32,000 nucleotides of DNA from Pedobacter schmidteae. GTDB lineage: Bacteria > Bacteroidota > Bacteroidia > Sphingobacteriales > Sphingobacteriaceae. Positions within the stretch are counted from its first letter, which is position 1, and the number at the start of each line of letters is the position of its first letter. The stretch is taken from the NCBI RefSeq assembly GCF_900564155.1, contig NZ_LS999839.1, forward strand, positions 585,097-617,096. The letters are read 5' to 3'. Below are positions 1,031 through 19,704 of the stretch, piece by piece. Under the pieces are notes generated by a model. That model searched no databases and was not told where the DNA came from. It worked only from the letters and a program-made list of their open reading frames with translations. The position numbers and the translations under genes were made by a program.

Positions 1031-4000
1031 TTATTTGAATGTTGCTCTGATACTCATGGACACCGAACGTGCAAAGGGATACAAGGTTCCACGCTCTTTT
1101 TGTACAGTTGAAGCATAAAAAAGGTCGTTTGAATAAGCCGTTACACTTAAGGCCGATAGATAGGCCTGATTTAACCATTTCCTATTTTTAAACTCGTAGC
1201 CCAAGTTAAATGACTCGCCTGTAAATGAGGTTTCTTTTTGCACAAATCTCGAACTGATCGGCGTTTTTGCAGAGATAGAAATCCCTTTAAACTCGGTTAA
1301 ATCACCAGGCTTCTGCCACCTGTCGTACAGCGCCCGCTTATCCTGATTGAACCTGATGCCCTCGTAAGAAATATTTTCTACTTTATTATATAGAGCTGAA
1401 TTAAATTGCTCCCTTGCGATTACATAACGCACAAAAACTCCGGCGGTAAACCCCTTGTAAAAGAAAGTACTGCTGATCACGCCCTCAGCTTTTGGTTTAC
1501 TGTTACCTACAACCACCTGGTCGGCAGGATCATAGGTAAAAGTCTGCTGTCCGTTTTTCTTTAAAAACACTTCTTTACCCGTTGCCGGATCAATACCCAA
1601 TGAAGGGACTGCCCACATATCATAAACGCTGTAACCGTCACGGTACCTTACCAACGAATTGCTTTTTGCCAGTTCATTGTTTAATGAAGTCAGTTTAGCA
1701 TCAAACTTGTCGTATTTCTGATCACTCATGGCTCCGGTAAGACCAAAAGATAAAATCGTATGACCGGGATTCCTTATTGGCTGATACGTAATGGAGGTTT
1801 CGATTCCCTTTACAATAGAAATCCCGGCATTAAATGGATAATTATTTAAGCCAGTTGAAGAAGGGAGGTTTACTGCAACCACCAGAGGGTCTGTCCTTTT
1901 GTTATAAGCATTAAACTCGATATTCAATTTGTTACCAAACAGAGCAGCATCAAAACCAACACTGGTTTGCAATGTTTTTTGCCATTTCAAATCAGGCGCA
2001 CCTAAGCCGTTCAGAAAAACGCCCTGACCATAACTATTTATGTTGGAATAATACCCATATACAGACTGACTGACATTCCCAAAATTCTGGTTTCCTGTCG
2101 ATCCAATATTCCCACGCAAACGTAAGCTATTGATCCAACCAATATTCTTCATGAATTCTTCTTTGTAAACATTCCAGCTTACCCCAACCGAATAATATGG
2201 TGCATATCGATGCGCCGAGCCAAAAGCTGTAGACCCATCCAAATTCAGGTTCATATCCACATTGTAGCGCTGATCATAAGAGTAGTTCACCGATGCAACA
2301 ATACTATTCCTTCTCGTCAAAGAGTTTTTTGCAACGGGGCTTCCCGAAAGGGGATAACCAAAAGCGAAAGCAGGATTTCCATTGCTTGAGTTGGGGAAAC
2401 CAATAGCACCATAGCCATTTAATCTTCTATTATTCTGTGCAACCTCGCCCCTTAAATATCCTGTAAAGGAATGTACTTTATTAAATACTTTTGCATAGGT
2501 CAAACTGATGTTGACATTATAATTCAGCTCTTTCCTGGTTTCAGAAGTATACACTCCTTTTTTTGCCGGATCTGTTTCATCTTCGTATTTCGTATTCAAC
2601 GGAGACACAAATTGTGTACTGTCTGCTGAATTTTTTGCAATTTGTGCATTCACCTGTAATCTCAGTTGATTGGTAAAATCGGCATTCAACTGAAAGTTAT
2701 TCTGCACGTTAAAACTTGAAGAATTGGCAAAACTGTTTAACGAGGCATTATAAAGCGGATTTGGAATCCGTTCATTTCCCTTGCTATCCAGCCCTTCAGC
2801 ATTATAACTTGGAGAAATTACCACCTCCAGGTATTTCTGGCTCGGGCTTGCAAGCCTGTAATAAGGATTCGTCCCTACCCAATCGGCAAAACTTCCATAT
2901 GGAGAATCGGCACCTTCAGCACCACTTATATATACCCTATTAGAGATATTTATAATTCCAGTCCGATAACTCAGGTTCAGATTTGCACCCCAGTCATCTC
3001 TTTTCGACCCGATCATTGTGGCATTGTTTTTTCTCAGATTTGCCCCAACCTCGTATCTTAAAACCTCATCTCCGCCAGATGCATTAATAGAGTGTCTGTG
3101 TGAAAAACCAGTTTGTAACGGCTGACTTAACCAATAGGTATCTACACCTTTTAAAACTTCACTTAAACGTGAATTATACACCTCATCTAAAGCCAATTGT
3201 CTGGTTGCACCATCGTTTCTGTCTCTATATCTTCCCGCCAGCCTTTCAAATTGAATTTTCTCGGAGGCATTCATCATATTATAAGAGGAAAGGTCTGGCA
3301 ACTCAGCTTTCAAATCAGAAGTATAACTTAACCTGATCTTCCCAGGCTCCGGTTTTTTGGTTTCAATAACAACTACGCCATTAGAAGCCCTTGAACCATA
3401 GATGGCTGTCGACGAAGCATCTTTCAAGATAGTAACAGAGGCCACTGTATTCATATCTAAATCAACAATTGTCCTCAAAGTCGATTCAAAGCCATCCAGG
3501 ATAAACAGCGGCTGATTCGGATCCGTAGAAAATTCATCTCTTAATCCGCTGGTTGAAATACTGGTCTGTCCGCGTAGTTCAAGTGTTGGCAACACATTTG
3601 GGTTAGAGCCCAAAGCATTGTTCACGATCTGTAAAAATGCGGGATCCAGAGATTTTAAACTTTGAATAATGTTCTGGTTACCCAACATCTTTAACTGATC
3701 GCCACTAAAAGTTGCAGTAGCGCCTGTAAATGAGGTCTTTTTACGAACCATCATTCCGGTAACCACCACGTCTTTCATGTTGTTTTCTTCGACTTCCATT
3801 TTAATGGTCAACATCGGCTGATTGGGCTTAAGTGGTATTTCCTGTGTTTTATAACCTACATAGGAAATGACCAGCGTTTCCTTAAAAGAAGGAACTGCCA
3901 ATCTGAAACGTCCTTGTGCGTTGCTTACCGCTCCACCTGATGTGGCTCCCTTAATCCTAATAGAAGCACCCGGAATAGGGACTCCACTTTCGTCCAGAAT

Positions 4001-4342
4001 TGTTCCATACACCTGCATTTGCTGAAAGAGAAGAAGCTCAAGAGTCCTATCCCTGATGATGATGGTTTTTTCTTTAATGGAATAAGTAAGTGGCTGGCCT
4101 TTGAAGCTGGCATTTAACGCGTCGACAAGCGAGCCCTTTTCAATGTCGATCGTTACAGGCCTGGCCAATTTCATCTGCGGCGCGGTGTACACAAAGTCGT
4201 AACCGCTTTGTTTTCTGATGGCTTTGATTACCTCCTGCAGTGATGCATTGTCCTTTTTCAGACTAATGATCTGTGCGTAGCCACCCGCAGTAACCTGCAG
4301 CAGCATACTGGTTAATAAAATAATGGTTAGGTTTATCCGCAT
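1031..4342 (-). CDS. SusC/RagA-type TonB-dependent outer-membrane transporter with N-terminal STN (secretin/TonB N-terminus) signalling domain
   Basis: ORF 1031-4480. I prefer the start at Met47 (ATG 4342), which gives the signal peptide MRINLTIILLTSMLLQVTAGGYAQ. That peptide aligns with the paralog, whereas the upstream 46 codons have no counterpart there. An STN-like segment (LQEVIKAIRKQSGYDFVY..IIIRDR) is followed by a CarboxypepD_reg-like segment (VYGTILDESGVPIPGASIRIKGA), a plug (DVVVTG.. ILDGF.. ILKDASSTAIYGSRASNGVVVIETKK) and a C-terminal beta-barrel ending in F. It lies downstream of an ECF sigma/FecR pair. Confidence 0.9.
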   Translation of the reverse strand: MRINLTIILLTSMLLQVTAGGYAQIISLKKDNASLQEVIKAIRKQSGYDFVYTAPQMKLARPVTIDIEKGSLVDALNASFKGQPLTYSIKEKTIIIRDRTLELLLFQQMQVYGTILDESGVPIPGASIRIKGATSGGAVSNAQGRFRLAVPSFKETLVISYVGYKTQEIPLKPNQPMLTIKMEVEENNMKDVVVTGMMVRKKTSFTGATATFSGDQLKMLGNQNIIQSLKSLDPAFLQIVNNALGSNPNVLPTLELRGQTSISTSGLRDEFSTDPNQPLFILDGFESTLRTIVDLDMNTVASVTILKDASSTAIYGSRASNGVVVIETKKPEPGKIRLSYTSDLKAELPDLSSYNMMNASEKIQFERLAGRYRDRNDGATRQLALDEVYNSRLSEVLKGVDTYWLSQPLQTGFSHRHSINASGGDEVLRYEVGANLRKNNATMIGSKRDDWGANLNLSYRTGIINISNRVYISGAEGADSPYGSFADWVGTNPYYRLASPSQKYLEVVISPSYNAEGLDSKGNERIPNPLYNASLNSFANSSSFNVQNNFQLNADFTNQLRLQVNAQIAKNSADSTQFVSPLNTKYEDETDPAKKGVYTSETRKELNYNVNISLTYAKVFNKVHSFTGYLRGEVAQNNRRLNGYGAIGFPNSSNGNPAFAFGYPLSGSPVAKNSLTRRNSIVASVNYSYDQRYNVDMNLNLDGSTAFGSAHRYAPYYSVGVSWNVYKEEFMKNIGWINSLRLRGNIGSTGNQNFGNVSQSVYGYYSNINSYGQGVFLNGLGAPDLKWQKTLQTSVGFDAALFGNKLNIEFNAYNKRTDPLVVAVNLPSSTGLNNYPFNAGISIVKGIETSITYQPIRNPGHTILSFGLTGAMSDQKYDKFDAKLTSLNNELAKSNSLVRYRDGYSVYDMWAVPSLGIDPATGKEVFLKKNGQQTFTYDPADQVVVGNSKPKAEGVISSTFFYKGFTAGVFVRYVIAREQFNSALYNKVENISYEGIRFNQDKRALYDRWQKPGDLTEFKGISISAKTPISSRFVQKETSFTGESFNLGYEFKNRKWLNQAYLSALSVTAYSNDLFYASTVQKERGTLYPFARSVSMSIRATFK

Positions 4343-4470
4343 TATATACTTCCTTTTGTCCGCCTCCCTGATTCGCTGAAGAACCAGACAAGCGATTTGC
4401 AATATTAAATTTGCTGCATGAGCAAATCGCATACGCTTAAATAGCGCATTAAATTTCATACATTTGAATT

Positions 4471-4605
4471 TAGATCCCATTGCTGTGGTTAAAAGCAGTA
4501 TTGGGAATGGTTTGGAATTTAGTTGATTAATGTGTTCAGCATTATAGAATTAGCAATCCAACCTTTTACCTGGAGCGAGGCCAATCGTTCCAGGTTCTTT
4601 TTTGG
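4471..4605 (+). ncRNA. Candidate cis-antisense small RNA in the fecR-susC spacer (DonS-like position)
   Basis: Plus-strand TACATTTG (4459-4466) matches the Bacteroidetes -7 consensus TAnnTTTG. A strong hairpin plus T-tract follows 102 nt downstream (4568-4605). There is no plus-strand CDS anywhere nearby. The paralogous spacer has the same arrangement (15108-15237). No -33 TTTG element was found, and the 5' end is only a prediction. Confidence 0.3.
4568..4605 (+). terminator. Intrinsic-terminator-like hairpin plus T-tract oriented antisense to the operon
   Basis: ACCTGGAGCGA (4568-4578) pairs with TCGTTCCAGGT (4585-4595). The stem is 11 bp with one G-U that exists only in the plus-strand RNA. 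The loop is GGCCAA, followed by TCTTTTTTGG. On the minus strand the flank is TAAAAGG, which is not U-rich. Confidence 0.5.
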
Positions 4606-4622
4606 ATTACACTTATGTAAAA

Positions 4623-5833: not shown

Positions 5834-6415
5834 CTAAAAATTGACGCTGATAAAGATGGAAAACACCTTCAGTTTTCCTTTCAGAATTTTGACCGCATTG
5901 CTCACCTGTTTTTTTACGGTCAGGTCCGATACCCCAAGCTTATCGGCAATTTCTTTATGTGAAAATCCTTCATTTCTACTCATTTCAAACATTTCTCTCA
6001 TTTTTGGAGGCAAAGCGGCAACCTCCTTTTCAATAACCGCTACAAGTTCCCTTTCCCTCAGCTGGTCATCGGTAATATATTCCCCTTCTTTAATAAATTG
6101 CTGCAGGTAGGTTTGATAATCTGTCCTTACTTTTCTGTGATCCAACAGATCAAAAATCCGGTAACGTACAGAAGTATACAGGTAAAGAGAGAGGGAAGTT
6201 TTGATGGTTAGTTCAGTCCCTTTATGCCATAGATAGGTAAAAACCTCTTGAATAATGTCCTGGGCATCATCTTCATCGGCTAATATTTTTCGGGCATAAA
6301 CGTACATAATGGCCCAGTAGCGCTGGTAAATTTGTTCATAAGCATGCCTGTCCCCTGCCTTAAAAAGCAGTAGCAACTCATCATCTGGAATACGGCTTAA
6401 ATCCTGTTCTTGCAT
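5834..6415 (-). CDS. ECF-type (group 4, sigma-70 family) RNA polymerase sigma factor
   Basis: 193 aa. Region 2-like segment: ..AYEQIYQRYWAIMYVYARKIL.DEDDAQDIIQEVF..LW. Region 4 HTH: ALPPKMREMFEMSRNEGFSHKEIADKLGVSDLTVKKQVSNA. It is paralogous to 16646-17230. Confidence 0.9.
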   Translation of the reverse strand: MQEQDLSRIPDDELLLLFKAGDRHAYEQIYQRYWAIMYVYARKILADEDDAQDIIQEVFTYLWHKGTELTIKTSLSLYLYTSVRYRIFDLLDHRKVRTDYQTYLQQFIKEGEYITDDQLRERELVAVIEKEVAALPPKMREMFEMSRNEGFSHKEIADKLGVSDLTVKKQVSNAVKILKGKLKVFSIFISVNF

Positions 6416-15042: not shown

Positions 15043-15119
15043 AATTAATAATAGTTTGGGTGGTAGCCAAAGATTGGGCATACCTAGTTTAAAAGCATAT
15101 TTATTCATACTTTTGATTG

Positions 15120-15237
15120 GTTTGAGTTGATACAGAATGGTTGGACTAATTGTTCTTCTCTGTCTGCAAAGGACAGGGAATGGTCACCTCAAACTTTTGC
15201 CGGATTGTGCTTCCAACACCTTCCGGCTTTTGTATTT
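15120..15237 (+). ncRNA. Candidate cis-antisense small RNA in the second fecR-susC spacer
   Basis: Plus-strand TACTTTTG (15108-15115) matches TAnnTTTG. A hairpin plus T-tract follows 84 nt downstream (15199-15237). No plus-strand CDS is nearby. The geometry matches 4459-4605. The 5' end is only predicted. Confidence 0.3.
15199..15237 (+). terminator. Intrinsic-terminator-like hairpin plus T-tract oriented antisense to the operon
   Basis: GCCGGA (15199-15204) pairs with TCCGGC (15222-15227). An inner GTG/CAC (15207-15209 with 15217-15219) follows a 2x2 internal loop. The downstream flank is TTTTGTATTT. The outer stem differs from the paralogous hairpin at two positions, and both changes are compensated on the opposite arm. 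Confidence 0.45.
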
Positions 15238-15323
15238 AAGGCCACCTTTGTCTTGACACTAAGGTTTTGGTAATTGTTTTTTCATTGTTTTTAGATTTGG
15301 TTTGTTAGTTGTTGGGTTAATAT

Positions 15324-16472
15324 TTATTTGAGTACATTAATTTTTCTGCCTTCTATTTTAAAGTGAACCTTACCGGTTGATTCAATAATTGCTAACACTT
15401 CTCCAATACTTTTTGAACGTGAAACCAATCCTTCGAGCGTAATATTCTTTGGAACATTTTCCTGATAAACAATCTGTACATCATACCACCGGGCTATTTT
15501 CCGCATCATACTTTCCAGGTTTTCCTCCTTAAACACAAAATCCCCGTTTTTCCAGTCGATCTCGTCTTCAGCTTCTACTGCAACTACCTTTATCCCATCC
15601 TGTTTCAACTCCGACTGCTGTCCCGGTTTTAAGATAACCACAGAAATGCCATTTACTTTGGCTTTTACCTGTACGCTACCCTCCAGCAAAGTTGTCTTGG
15701 TACTGCCATCATCGGCATAGCTTTTCACATTAAAATGTGTGCCCAAAACCATTACCTCTTGTTCGGCCGTAGCCACAATGAATGGCTTACGATCTGCTTT
15801 TGCAATCTCAAAGTAGGCTTCTCCATTTAATTCTACTCTTCTTTCCCTTGACGAATTAATCTGAGCCGGGTATCTTAAAGAAGAGGCTGCATTTAACCAT
15901 ACCCTGGAACCGTCGGGCAAAAGGATCTGGTATTGCCCACCTTTAGGGGTTGCAATGGTATTATAAGCAATCCTTTGGGGATCTTCTACCGCCGAAGTCT
16001 CTGCGACACGATAAATCAGCTGCCCATCGGCTGTTTTAGTAATATGGATTCCCGACTGAACCCCCACGTTTCCTGTGTGCGCAGCTGTCAGGTCAATTAT
16101 TTTACCATTTGCCAATGTTAAAGTGGCCTTATTCCCTCCAGGAATAATAGTGGCCTGTGCCATGCCAGCGGCCTCCTCCATTACCTTTGTATCGTGGGAT
16201 AGGTAAAAAAACAAGCCTGCCGAAAGTGTCATCAGCACTGCGACAGCAGCTGCAATGGTTGGCCAACTATGAAATTTCACTGGCGATTTCTGCTCTTTCT
16301 GTAGATTCAGCAAAACCCCATCAAGGTCCGCTGTACGCTCTTCTAATCCTAATTCGGATGTTCCGGCTTCTTGATAAGTCAGGTACCAGCTTTCCAACAA
16401 GGCTTTTTCAGCCTCAGTAGCCTGCCCCTTTCTGTAATTGTCCAGTATGGTTTTTATTTCTTCTTCCTGCAT
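15324..16472 (-). CDS. FecR-family transmembrane anti-sigma factor (paralog of 4623-5744)
   Basis: 382 aa with a TM helix (TIAAAVAVLMTLSAGLFFYL). FecR-like core: ..GEAYFEIAKADRKPFIV......V.VLGTHFNVKSY. The same C-terminal ..VHFKIEGRKINV tail is present. Confidence 0.9.
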   Translation of the reverse strand: MQEEEIKTILDNYRKGQATEAEKALLESWYLTYQEAGTSELGLEERTADLDGVLLNLQKEQKSPVKFHSWPTIAAAVAVLMTLSAGLFFYLSHDTKVMEEAAGMAQATIIPGGNKATLTLANGKIIDLTAAHTGNVGVQSGIHITKTADGQLIYRVAETSAVEDPQRIAYNTIATPKGGQYQILLPDGSRVWLNAASSLRYPAQINSSRERRVELNGEAYFEIAKADRKPFIVATAEQEVMVLGTHFNVKSYADDGSTKTTLLEGSVQVKAKVNGISVVILKPGQQSELKQDGIKVVAVEAEDEIDWKNGDFVFKEENLESMMRKIARWYDVQIVYQENVPKNITLEGLVSRSKSIGEVLAIIESTGKVHFKIEGRKINVLK

Positions 16473-17357: not shown

Positions 17358-17388
17358 TCGTCATCCTGAAATAAATTCAGGATGACGA
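17358..17388 (-). terminator. Intrinsic terminator of the GH2/GH63-like/kinase-lyase operon
   Basis: A perfect 13-bp stem: TCGTCATCCTGAA (17358-17370) pairs with TTCAGGATGACGA (17376-17388), with a 5-nt loop. It starts 12 nt after the TGA stop at 17401-17403. On the minus strand it is followed by TCGCTTTTATGAT. Confidence 0.65.
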
Positions 17389-17400
17389 ATAGTACAAACA

Positions 17401-19704
17401 TCAACTCCTTGCCCCAAGGACCTGGTCCAGATTGTACAGGAATTCATCGGCATTTGTTTTATTGAACAGCATCGGCGGCTTAATTTTTAAAACATTATGC
17501 AATGGCCCGTCGGTACTCAGTAAAAACCCCCGGTTCCTCATTTCTTCTACAATCTCATCTATTTCCGGTACCGCAGGCTCCAATGTTTCCCGATTTCTAA
17601 CCAATTCGGCCCCTACAAATAGGCCCTTACCTCGTACATCACCTATAATTGGATATTTTTCCATCAGGTCCTCCAATCCCTTCAAAAGGTAATTACCAGT
17701 TTCTAATGCCCTCTGTTGCAAGTCCTCCTCTTGAATTACCTGCATTACCGCAATTCCTGTCTCCATAGACACCGGATTTCCACCATAAGTATTAAAATAC
17801 TCCATTCCATTGTTAAAAGCTGCAGCAAGCTCCTCGGTTAAAACTACCGCAGCAAGCGGATGTCCATTCCCAATTGGCTTACCCAACACCACTATGTCCG
17901 GCTCCACGCCCTGCAATTCAAAACCCCAGAATTTTTCGCCCACCCGACCAAAGCCAACTTGCACCTCATCGGCAATGCACAAACCGCCGGCAGCCCTTAC
18001 ATGACGATATACTTCTTTCAGATAACCCTCGGGCAAAGGAATCTGTCCACCAACGCCCAACAACGTCTCACAGATAAAAGCAGCTATTCCGGTTTCTTTG
18101 GCCGCCAGCGTTTTAATGATTTCTGCTATATCCAAAGCGTATTTTGCTCCTGCTTCTTTGTCTCCATAACGATAAGTTCCTCTGTACAGATCGGGGTTCA
18201 TACCTTTATGAATATAAGGTTGTTGTCCGGTGCCACCCTTACCATCAAATTTATAGGGACTTAGCTCCATAGCTACTGTAGACGTACCGTGGTATGCATG
18301 ATCCAATACAATAACGTCCTTTTGTTTGGTAAAATGCCTGCTGATCCTGATAGCCAGGTCATTTGCCTCGCTGCCTGAATTACAGAAATAACAAACCTTT
18401 AACTTAGGCGGCAAACTTGAGGTGATCATTCTGGCATAACTAACCAGGCTGTCGTGCAGGTATCGGGTATTGGTATTGAGCTTTGCCAATTGCTTTTGCA
18501 TGGCTTTGACCACCACCGGGTGGCAATGTCCCACATGGCTTACGTTATTTACGCAGTCGATATAAGTATCACCTTTATCATCGTACAGGTATTGCAGGGC
18601 ACCTCTGCCAATTTTTAAATTCTTTTTATAGCTGATACTCAGGTTAGCTCCCACCACCTGTTTTCTTTCTTGTTTCAGGTCCTCATCGGCTGTTTCCGTC
18701 CCAAGTACCGGCGCATAACCACAACATATATTAAATCTATTTTGTGCCTGAAGCGGATTGATACGGATCCACTGGTACAAAAGTGTCCAGGCGTCGGCTT
18801 CCGAAATAAAGTGATGCGCATTATTGCTCTTACTCCTTTGCAGAGCAGAGGTGGTTACACTCATACACAAGCGGGCCGCGATAAGGTAATAGAGTACCGA
18901 AAGTTCGGTCTCTGCCAACGGATAAACCTGGTGATAGCTACGCAGTAATAACTCTGCAACAACCAATGGATCTGATCTTTTAAACAAGGCATAAGTACAA
19001 GCGACAGCTACATTATTGATCAGCTGACTTTCTACCATATCACCAAAATCAATGATTCCACTCAATAGCCCATTCGTGATCAGCACATTATAGTCGTTTG
19101 CGTCATTATGGATCACCGCTTTGCGCAGGTGTGGTAACAATGGCACAACCTCCATTTCGTACTGCAGCAGAAAATAAGCGACCATCGTTCTTTTTTCATG
19201 ATCTTTGATATGATGCAGATGCTGGCGACAATGCATAACCTGCGCCAGGTCCCACTCGATAAAACGATAAGTTGCAGGATGAGCAAAATCTTCCATCTGC
19301 AAATCCATACGGGCCAATCCCGCGCCCAGACTTTCAAATACAGTATCCGGACCTACTTTCAAATCTCCCAGAAAAGTCCCCTCCAGGTAGGATAACACTC
19401 TTAAGTACAAAGTTTTTCCATCCAGATCAAGTATTGTTTGTCCATCACCTTCCGCATTGAGATACACATCCTGTATCGGGATACTTTTGTCTTTCCGTTT
19501 TAAATGCTCCATCGCCTTAAGCTGGGCATCCAGGAAATAAGGATCGGCAGGATCGACGCTCACTTTAGCGATAAACTTGTTGCCTGTGTTATCCTGAAGC
19601 AAAAAATTCTGATCTTCATACCCTTGTATTTTATCAATTCGGGTCAATTCAAGATCGTAATATTGCTGGAGCAGTTCTTTAATATATTGTTCGGAAAGTA
19701 TCAT
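17401..19704 (-). CDS. Bifunctional fusion: N-terminal hydroxylysine-kinase-like APH-fold kinase plus C-terminal AGXT2L-type phospho-lyase (class-III aminotransferase fold, PLP-dependent)
   Basis: 767 aa with no signal peptide. N-terminal half: ..GYEDQNFLL.., catalytic loop [13 protein letters not shown], metal-binding IIDFGDM. These match my recollection of human HYKK/AGPHD1 (YDDQNF, INHGDLNDHNILI, ILDFGDM). C-terminal half: [86 protein letters not shown]. These match remembered ETNPPL/PHYKPL (AGXT2L1/2) blocks almost block for block. Confidence 0.85.

Follow-up and report, generated by a model that had tools for sequence, protein, structure and literature searches.

A candidate DonS-like antisense RNA gene in a fecR-susC spacer of Pedobacter schmidteae and about 80 predicted units of like design in the genome

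Does the spacer between a FecR-type anti-sigma factor gene and the susC-like gene behind it hold a small RNA gene of its own, read from the opposite strand? The question arises from a stretch of 32,000 nucleotides of Pedobacter schmidteae (contig NZ_LS999839.1, positions 585,097 to 617,096), hereafter the window, for which a preliminary description had proposed that a promoter box and a terminator on the plus strand delimit an antisense RNA resembling DonS of Bacteroides fragilis. The signals lie at 4459-4603 (plus strand), between the FecR and SusC genes, both of which are on the minus strand. Based on their arrangement, recurrence and conservation, our best explanation is that the spacer holds a small, DonS-like cis-antisense RNA gene that would restrain susC, and we put the probability of this reading at roughly 75%. 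The window contains a second unit of the same kind, and the two are called copy 1 and copy 2 below. The features to which we refer are the following.

1031-4459, minus strand: SusC-like TonB-dependent transducer gene (STN, CarboxypepD_reg and Plug domains), with the ATG at 4459-4457 as corrected start
4459-4466, plus strand: antisense -7 promoter box TACATTTG (TAnnTTTG), by motif match
4472-4603, plus strand: cis-antisense RNA of about 130 nt, as predicted from the positions of box and terminator
4475-4506, plus strand: hairpin 1 (5' hairpin), specific to a five-member subfamily, by folding and comparison
4509-4563, plus strand: hairpin 2, a long helix closed by GGTTTGG / CCAACC, by folding and comparison
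4568-4595, plus strand: terminator hairpin of 11 bp with 6 G-C pairs, one G-U pair and a 6-nt loop
4596-4603, plus strand: T-tract TCTTTTTT, ending 19 nt short of the fecR stop codon
4623-5744, minus strand: FecR-type anti-sigma factor gene
5834-6415, minus strand: ECF sigma factor gene
15108-15238, plus strand: second unit (copy 2), with the box TACTTTTG at 15108-15115 abutting the start of susC-2
15120-15194 and 15199-15227, plus strand: closing helix and terminator of the second unit, the latter followed by a T-tract

Both signals of the preliminary description were recovered in copy 1. The box TACATTTG at 4459-4466 is a perfect TAnnTTTG on the plus strand and has, at the motif level, the form of a housekeeping-type promoter. 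The 11-bp plus-strand hairpin at 4568-4595 lies 102 nt from the box on the same strand and runs into TCTTTTTTGG; the interval 4568-4603 therefore presents the G+C-rich stem-loop and the following U-tract of an intrinsic terminator on the transcribed strand. It had also been claimed that the single G-U stem pair makes the hairpin stable on the plus strand and that the minus-strand flank is not rich in U, and both observations stand. On the plus strand the eighth pair of the stem is G-U, which turns into an A-C mismatch on the minus strand; the hairpin folds at -19.1 kcal/mol (z -4.6) on the former versus -14.4 kcal/mol (z -2.5) on the latter, and the minus-strand 3' flank reads AAAAGGTTGG (AAAAGG).

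In a scan of the first 20 kb this terminator ranks second among all terminator-like sites. The strongest, a 13-bp stem at 17358-17388 on the minus strand, lies downstream of the gene at 17401-19704 and looks like an ordinary operon end. We placed the start of the predicted RNA 5-8 nt past the box (about 4472-4474) and its end within the T-tract. For the whole RNA the predicted fold energy is -48.6 kcal/mol (z -5.7), compared to -29.5 kcal/mol (z -2.4) for the sense strand; inspected by eye, its longest small open reading frame has about 16 codons and begins with TTG. Judged from the sequence, the combination of box and terminator at 4459-4603 is far beyond chance.

The position of the box relative to susC depends on where that gene starts. 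The preliminary description had set the start at 4342 and accordingly counted a spacer of 280 nt. In its place we favour the ATG at 4459, which on sequence grounds is most likely the true start and which reduces the spacer to 163 nt (4460-4622). The start was moved because the susC reading frame is open as far as 4480, because the ATG at 4459 opens a protein beginning MKFNALFKR..., common to two paralogues of the same genome (MNFYALFKR... and MKFYALFKR...) that are both devoid of any earlier ATG, and because of a genome-wide pattern: 77 of the 78 box-bearing susC genes have an in-frame ATG, contiguous with susC, inside or abutting the box, where one third would be expected if the stretch were non-coding. 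Different gene callers give versions of the copy-1 SusC protein of 1149, 1142 and 1103 aa.

With this start, the box overlaps the susC start codon, T4459 being the complement of the A of the ATG, and the predicted RNA would be complementary to the susC leader only. Its position makes it exactly complementary to the interval from about -13 to -144, counted from the corrected AUG. The earlier statement that the RNA is fully complementary to the susC leader thus stands for the 5' leader, but the 118 nt between 4342 and 4459 that had been counted as leader are coding. Throughout the genome, SusC proteins coupled to FecR carry an extra N-terminal stretch (MKFY..., MYKIYT..., MKLNAFN...) before a signal-peptide-like KILLIMKLT segment, with a median of 21 codons before the first profile-aligned SusC residue; in the window this stretch is encoded at 4342-4459 and 15043-15108, both on the minus strand. 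A 9-bp inverted repeat, GCGATTTGC/GCAAATCGC at 4392-4430 (minus strand), falls within the translated N-terminal extension, given the start at 4459.

How often does this arrangement recur? Profile searches of the complete 6.2-Mb genome returned 109 fecR genes directly followed by a susC-like gene, a scale that agrees with the approximately 115 FecR_C domains found in this genome by a Pfam search. For a Pedobacter genome of 6.2 Mb, the number of trans-envelope signalling loci is very large. The spacers were analysed by scripted scans for boxes and terminators, with shuffled and real-sequence controls. TAnnTTTG is present in antisense orientation in 85 of the 109 spacers and in sense orientation in 4 of 109, while shuffles give 22.5 +/- 4.4. 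A strong antisense terminator (hairpin plus T-tract, <= -14 kcal/mol) occurs in 80 of 108 spacers, compared to 10 of 108 for the sense strand, 2-5 of 108 in dinucleotide shuffles and 15% of the other co-directional spacers of like size (n=289). With a cut-off of <= -10 kcal/mol the numbers rise to 95/108 for antisense and 24/108 for sense terminators.

The two signals were also considered together. An antisense box with a terminator (<= -10 kcal/mol) is found in 72 of 108 fecR-susC spacers versus 5.5% of the 289 controls. In the whole genome TAnnTTTG has 7448 matches, and a box followed by a terminator within 50-200 nt occurs at 584 places; 90 of these 584 units (15%) fall in 78 of the 109 fecR-susC spacers, which represent 0.38% of strand space. 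The RNAs predicted in this way have a median length of 107 nt (10-90% range, 85-139). These scans point to about 80 antisense RNA units of like design in this genome.

The overlap with the start codon raises the possibility that the box is kept for the sake of the protein. The conserved block, which reads aaAaccaAacaAAaCAAATGTATGAAaTTTaat on the sense strand, is used in two registers: in 22 loci the box contains the start ATG (CAAATGTA..., protein MYKIYT...), and in 55 loci the ATG starts at the last base of the box, 4 nt downstream (CAAAnnTATG..., protein MKFY...). Since the same letters are maintained in different frames, the box appears to be a DNA or RNA signal rather than a motif of the protein or an invariant context of the start codon. 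The extended motif is nearly restricted to fecR-susC sites, which account for 34 of its 42 matches in the genome, and is absent at the 74 susC-like genes without fecR; these 74 genes more often bear sense-strand boxes. Given the overlap with the start codon, conservation of the box could in part serve translation initiation. We also looked for a conserved -33 TTG upstream of the box and found none; the stretch in question is susC coding sequence, and we regard this absence as neutral to mildly negative for the reading of the box as an antisense promoter.

No close orthologue of the exact locus was found among 80 other Pedobacter genomes, the best FecR match being 59% identical. Conservation of copy 1 was therefore judged on two paralogues and on two homologues from other species. 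The paralogues, at 2.85 Mb and 4.78 Mb, are 76% and 67% identical to copy 1 and form with it, and with one locus each in two other Pedobacter genomes, a subfamily of five members. All share the same layout, in which an extra 5' hairpin (4475-4506) and the GGTTTGG...CCAACC helix (4509-4563) precede the terminator. RNAalifold recovered all three hairpins from the five members, with compensatory changes on both sides in 10 of 42 pairs. Hairpin 1 is preserved in the five homologous spacers with both of its sides changed. In the terminator, homologues have replaced T-A by A-T and C-G by T-A, and two A-U pairs have become G-U, a change that is tolerable only on the plus strand. The preliminary description had named loss of the hairpin in homologous spacers as the observation that would speak against its proposal; the hairpin is kept in the four homologous spacers by way of compensatory changes.

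The design extends well beyond this subfamily. In other Pedobacter genomes, 28 fecR-susC loci yielded the box in 24 cases and the antisense terminator in 26. We further considered 79 loci from named genomes, retrieved by means of a FecR alignment and representing about 26 named genera or groups, among them Pedobacter, Mucilaginibacter, Sphingobacterium, Solitalea, Daejeonella, Chitinophaga, Ginsengibacter, Ferruginibacter, Arachidicoccus, Dyadobacter, Lacihabitans, Flavobacterium and others. Box and terminator are both present in 70 of them, and a sense box in 2. The design therefore spans the Sphingobacteriales, Chitinophagales, Cytophagales and Flavobacteriales.

The strand on which these elements are maintained can be read from their folding. 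Averaged over the 72 predicted RNAs, the fold z is -4.27 for the antisense versus -2.54 for the sense strand, and after removal of the terminator -2.27 versus -0.69; the antisense fold is the stronger one in 63 of 72 loci. Covariation was measured on a MAFFT alignment of 49 terminators, paralogues from this genome. In the terminator helix 80.9% of the cells are paired, compared to 58.1% in shuffles (0/500), and cells with a double change number 123 versus 39.9. The covariation score is 0.67, as opposed to 0.27 in shuffles and at most 0.30 when the partners are slid. G-U or U-G makes up about 17% of the paired cells, which become mismatches if read on the sense strand. Taken together, the fold asymmetry and the covariation suggest that selection acts on the antisense strand.

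A typical member of the family consists, in this order, of the box, about 4 nt, GTTTGGGTTA, a variable middle hairpin, TAACCCAAAC, ATTT, the terminator and the T-tract, and its middle part is highly variable in length. The 5' and 3' arms pair in a closing helix that covaries as well: the energy is -10.6 kcal/mol for the arms of the same locus, -8.0 for arms combined across loci and -6.4 for the sense strand, and 0 of 5000 permutations were as low as the own-arm value. In copy 1, hairpin 2 is the counterpart of this closing helix. The second unit of the window, at 15108-15238, is a textbook member of the family and folds at -42.0 kcal/mol (z -4.5), versus -30.7 (z -2.6) for its sense strand.

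Some further elements of the two spacers deserve mention. A leader motif, TCCAAACCATTCCC, is found on the minus strand at 4503-4516 and 15135-15145. It is the AACCnAAAC element of the family; in copy 1 it is complementary to the GGTTTGG arm of hairpin 2 and is shifted about 40 nt upstream by the extra hairpin. The fecR-2 stop codon is abutted by a region (15292-15326) with an extra plus-strand box, TAGATTTG at 15292-15299, followed by GTTTGTTAGTTGTTGGGTTAA; on the sense strand this region resembles a degenerate susC start module with an 8-codon open reading frame. About ten other loci of the genome also have a box within approximately 40 nt of the fecR stop codon. The box at 15292-15299 could be the remnant of a module duplication or a promoter firing antisense into fecR.

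Could box and terminator be explained without an antisense RNA gene? The terminator might insulate the locus by stopping stray antisense transcription that comes from susC before it enters the fecR and sigma factor genes, the box being a by-product of the start-codon context. Such an arrangement would fit the lack of a conserved -33 element, the overlap of the box with the start codon and the strong antisense terminator-like sites in 15% of the other co-directional spacers. It leaves unexplained, however, why the box is conserved in two reading registers, for which translation context does not account, and why the part of the predicted RNA that precedes the terminator has structure only on the antisense strand (z -2.27 versus -0.69), with a closing helix that covaries; moreover, the mapped counterparts in Bacteroides start at such boxes. 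We consider insulation without an RNA gene distinctly unlikely. The hairpins could also belong to the sense strand and act in the fecR-susC mRNA, either behind fecR, where they would signal processing or stability, or in the susC leader, where their structure would control translation of susC, with the antisense T-tract being incidental. The minus-strand hairpin still reaches -14.4 kcal/mol, the sense folds are somewhat better than shuffles (mean z -2.54), and most spacers are without a sense terminator, so that the sense RNA probably contains the hairpin sequences. On the other hand, the roughly 17% of G-U among the terminator pairs would be A-C mismatches in a sense RNA, the antisense strand folds better in 63/72 loci, and a stem with T-tract (<= -10 kcal/mol) is present in 95/108 spacers in antisense orientation against 24/108 in sense orientation, which makes a sense-strand element very unlikely in our judgement.

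There is finally the possibility that an AT-rich octamer and a hairpin co-occur by chance in an A-rich spacer. TAnnTTTG is short, with its 7448 matches in the genome, but the enrichment far above both the shuffled and the real-sequence controls contradicts this explanation and renders it extremely improbable. The layout of the locus, its recurrence in about 78 of 109 spacers and in four orders, the covariation and the strand asymmetry instead support a DonS-like antisense RNA, as the preliminary description had suggested.

If the spacer does encode a DonS-like RNA, the housekeeping sigma factor would recognise the -7 box TACATTTG, which overlaps the susC start codon of the other strand. Transcription would start at about 4472-4474, proceed for some 130 nt across the spacer and stop at the terminator and T-tract, 19 nt before fecR. 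The RNA would fold into its three hairpins and pair with the transcript of fecR and susC ahead of the susC AUG. By analogy with DonS, susC and the genes behind it would be held down while the locus is uninduced; the repression of susC is here taken over from Bacteroides. Pairing with the leader might act by occluding the A-rich initiation region or by exposing the duplex to cleavage, and polymerase at the antisense promoter might itself occupy the susC start (polymerase interference).

Only 24/108 spacers have a sense terminator (<= -10 kcal/mol), which fits read-through from fecR, so that a sense partner RNA probably exists; it may span the whole stretch covered by the antisense RNA. A search for an ECF-dependent sense promoter did not locate one: the interval from the terminator to the start-codon motif has no conserved block free of gaps, and third codon positions are not conserved over the last 30 codons of fecR.

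A different question is whether the units act separately. Modelled pairing allows the idea that the approximately 80 antisense RNAs form a cross-regulating network that ranks nutrient loci, instead of serving as private switches, although we regard such a network as rather unlikely. The 5' end shared by most of the RNAs (GUUUGGGUUA) would complement a leader motif (UAACCCAAAC) that closely precedes almost every start codon of a FecR-coupled susC gene, and in each RNA a covarying 3' copy of this target would keep the shared 5' end masked. An RNA that is unmasked could then repress other loci in trans, and through the promoter box within the start codon, initiation on the two strands would be linked at one DNA site. 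What makes cross-regulation conceivable is that the 5' arm is common to most members and its complement to most leaders. Predicted cross-pairing at <= -12 kcal/mol involves 19% of the RNA-leader pairs, compared to 6% with shuffled 5' ends. Copy 1, which is without the shared 5' end, reaches this value with 2 of 71 other leaders, and copy 2, which keeps it, with 25 of 71.

To our knowledge, antisense control of the DonS type has been studied only in gut Bacteroides. The chief interest of the unit lies in its scale within the genome and its spread through the phylum. If these units are transcribed, the device would be close to a standard part of SusC loci coupled to sigma and anti-sigma factors, reaching four orders of Bacteroidota in addition to the published cases in Bacteroides, with dozens of copies per genome of a soil bacterium. 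The annotation of fecR-susC spacers and of susC start codons would then change, RNA-seq studies would gain ready candidate regulators, and a genetically tractable Pedobacter or Flavobacterium could be used to study the antisense mechanism.

Short, highly structured antisense RNAs that end in a terminator and are fully complementary to a leader are familiar from the copy-number control of plasmids and from type I toxin-antitoxin systems. These control replication or toxins, whereas the partner of the predicted Pedobacter RNAs is a nutrient-uptake operon under trans-envelope signalling. Closer in target are the FopS/GibS RNAs of B. thetaiotaomicron, multicopy paralogous trans-acting sRNAs with a 3' terminator hairpin, whose 5' region pairs beside the start codons of susC genes so that translation is blocked. 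Most FopS members are intergenic; they use a short seed to act in trans and are described by an Rfam model (PMC11697453). The Pedobacter units resemble them in being a multicopy paralogous family, in having the susC initiation region as target and in ending with a terminator hairpin. They differ in being cis-encoded with full complementarity, FopS being trans-encoded with a short seed. Searched against Rfam, they gave no relevant match at the gathering score or at E <= 10; only chance eukaryotic families appeared, and the FopS model was not matched. RNA-guided sigma systems with dCas12f (PMC13472631), which link ECF sigma factors and susCD, were considered as well and are a different system.

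The closest likeness is to DonS itself. As described in PMC7366714, DonS of Bacteroides fragilis (Cao et al. 2016, J Bacteriol 198:2410) exemplifies a family of cis-antisense RNAs, 78-128 nt in length, that are encoded divergently to PUL susC homologues and reduce their expression. In B. thetaiotaomicron ten further RNAs have a DonS-like orientation, five of them validated by Northern blot (PMC7366714). Six listed in its supplement, BTnc009 (140 nt), BTnc055 (81), BTnc077 (102), BTnc123 (122), BTnc249 (106) and BTnc252 (127), all use the canonical promoter PM1; terminators are called for BTnc009 and BTnc055, and 'TSS overlaps start codon' is annotated for BTnc055 and BTnc252 (PMC7366714 supplement).

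The likeness is one of design, namely position, strand, promoter type, predicted size and predicted terminator. Like the DonS-type RNAs, the predicted Pedobacter RNA lies opposite a susC homologue in a locus controlled by sigma and anti-sigma factors and carries the motif of the canonical Bacteroidota promoter, TAnnTTTG ('PM1'). Its predicted length of about 130 nt compares with 78-140 nt for the DonS type. A terminator hairpin is present in several of the Bacteroides RNAs, and some of them begin at the start codon of susC. The two groups differ in their hosts, Bacteroides on one side and the genus Pedobacter of the Sphingobacteriia on the other, and may differ in the loci that they accompany, as the Pedobacter loci need not be glycan loci. 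They also differ in number, with about 78 units in the Pedobacter genome as opposed to about 10-14 reported per Bacteroides genome.
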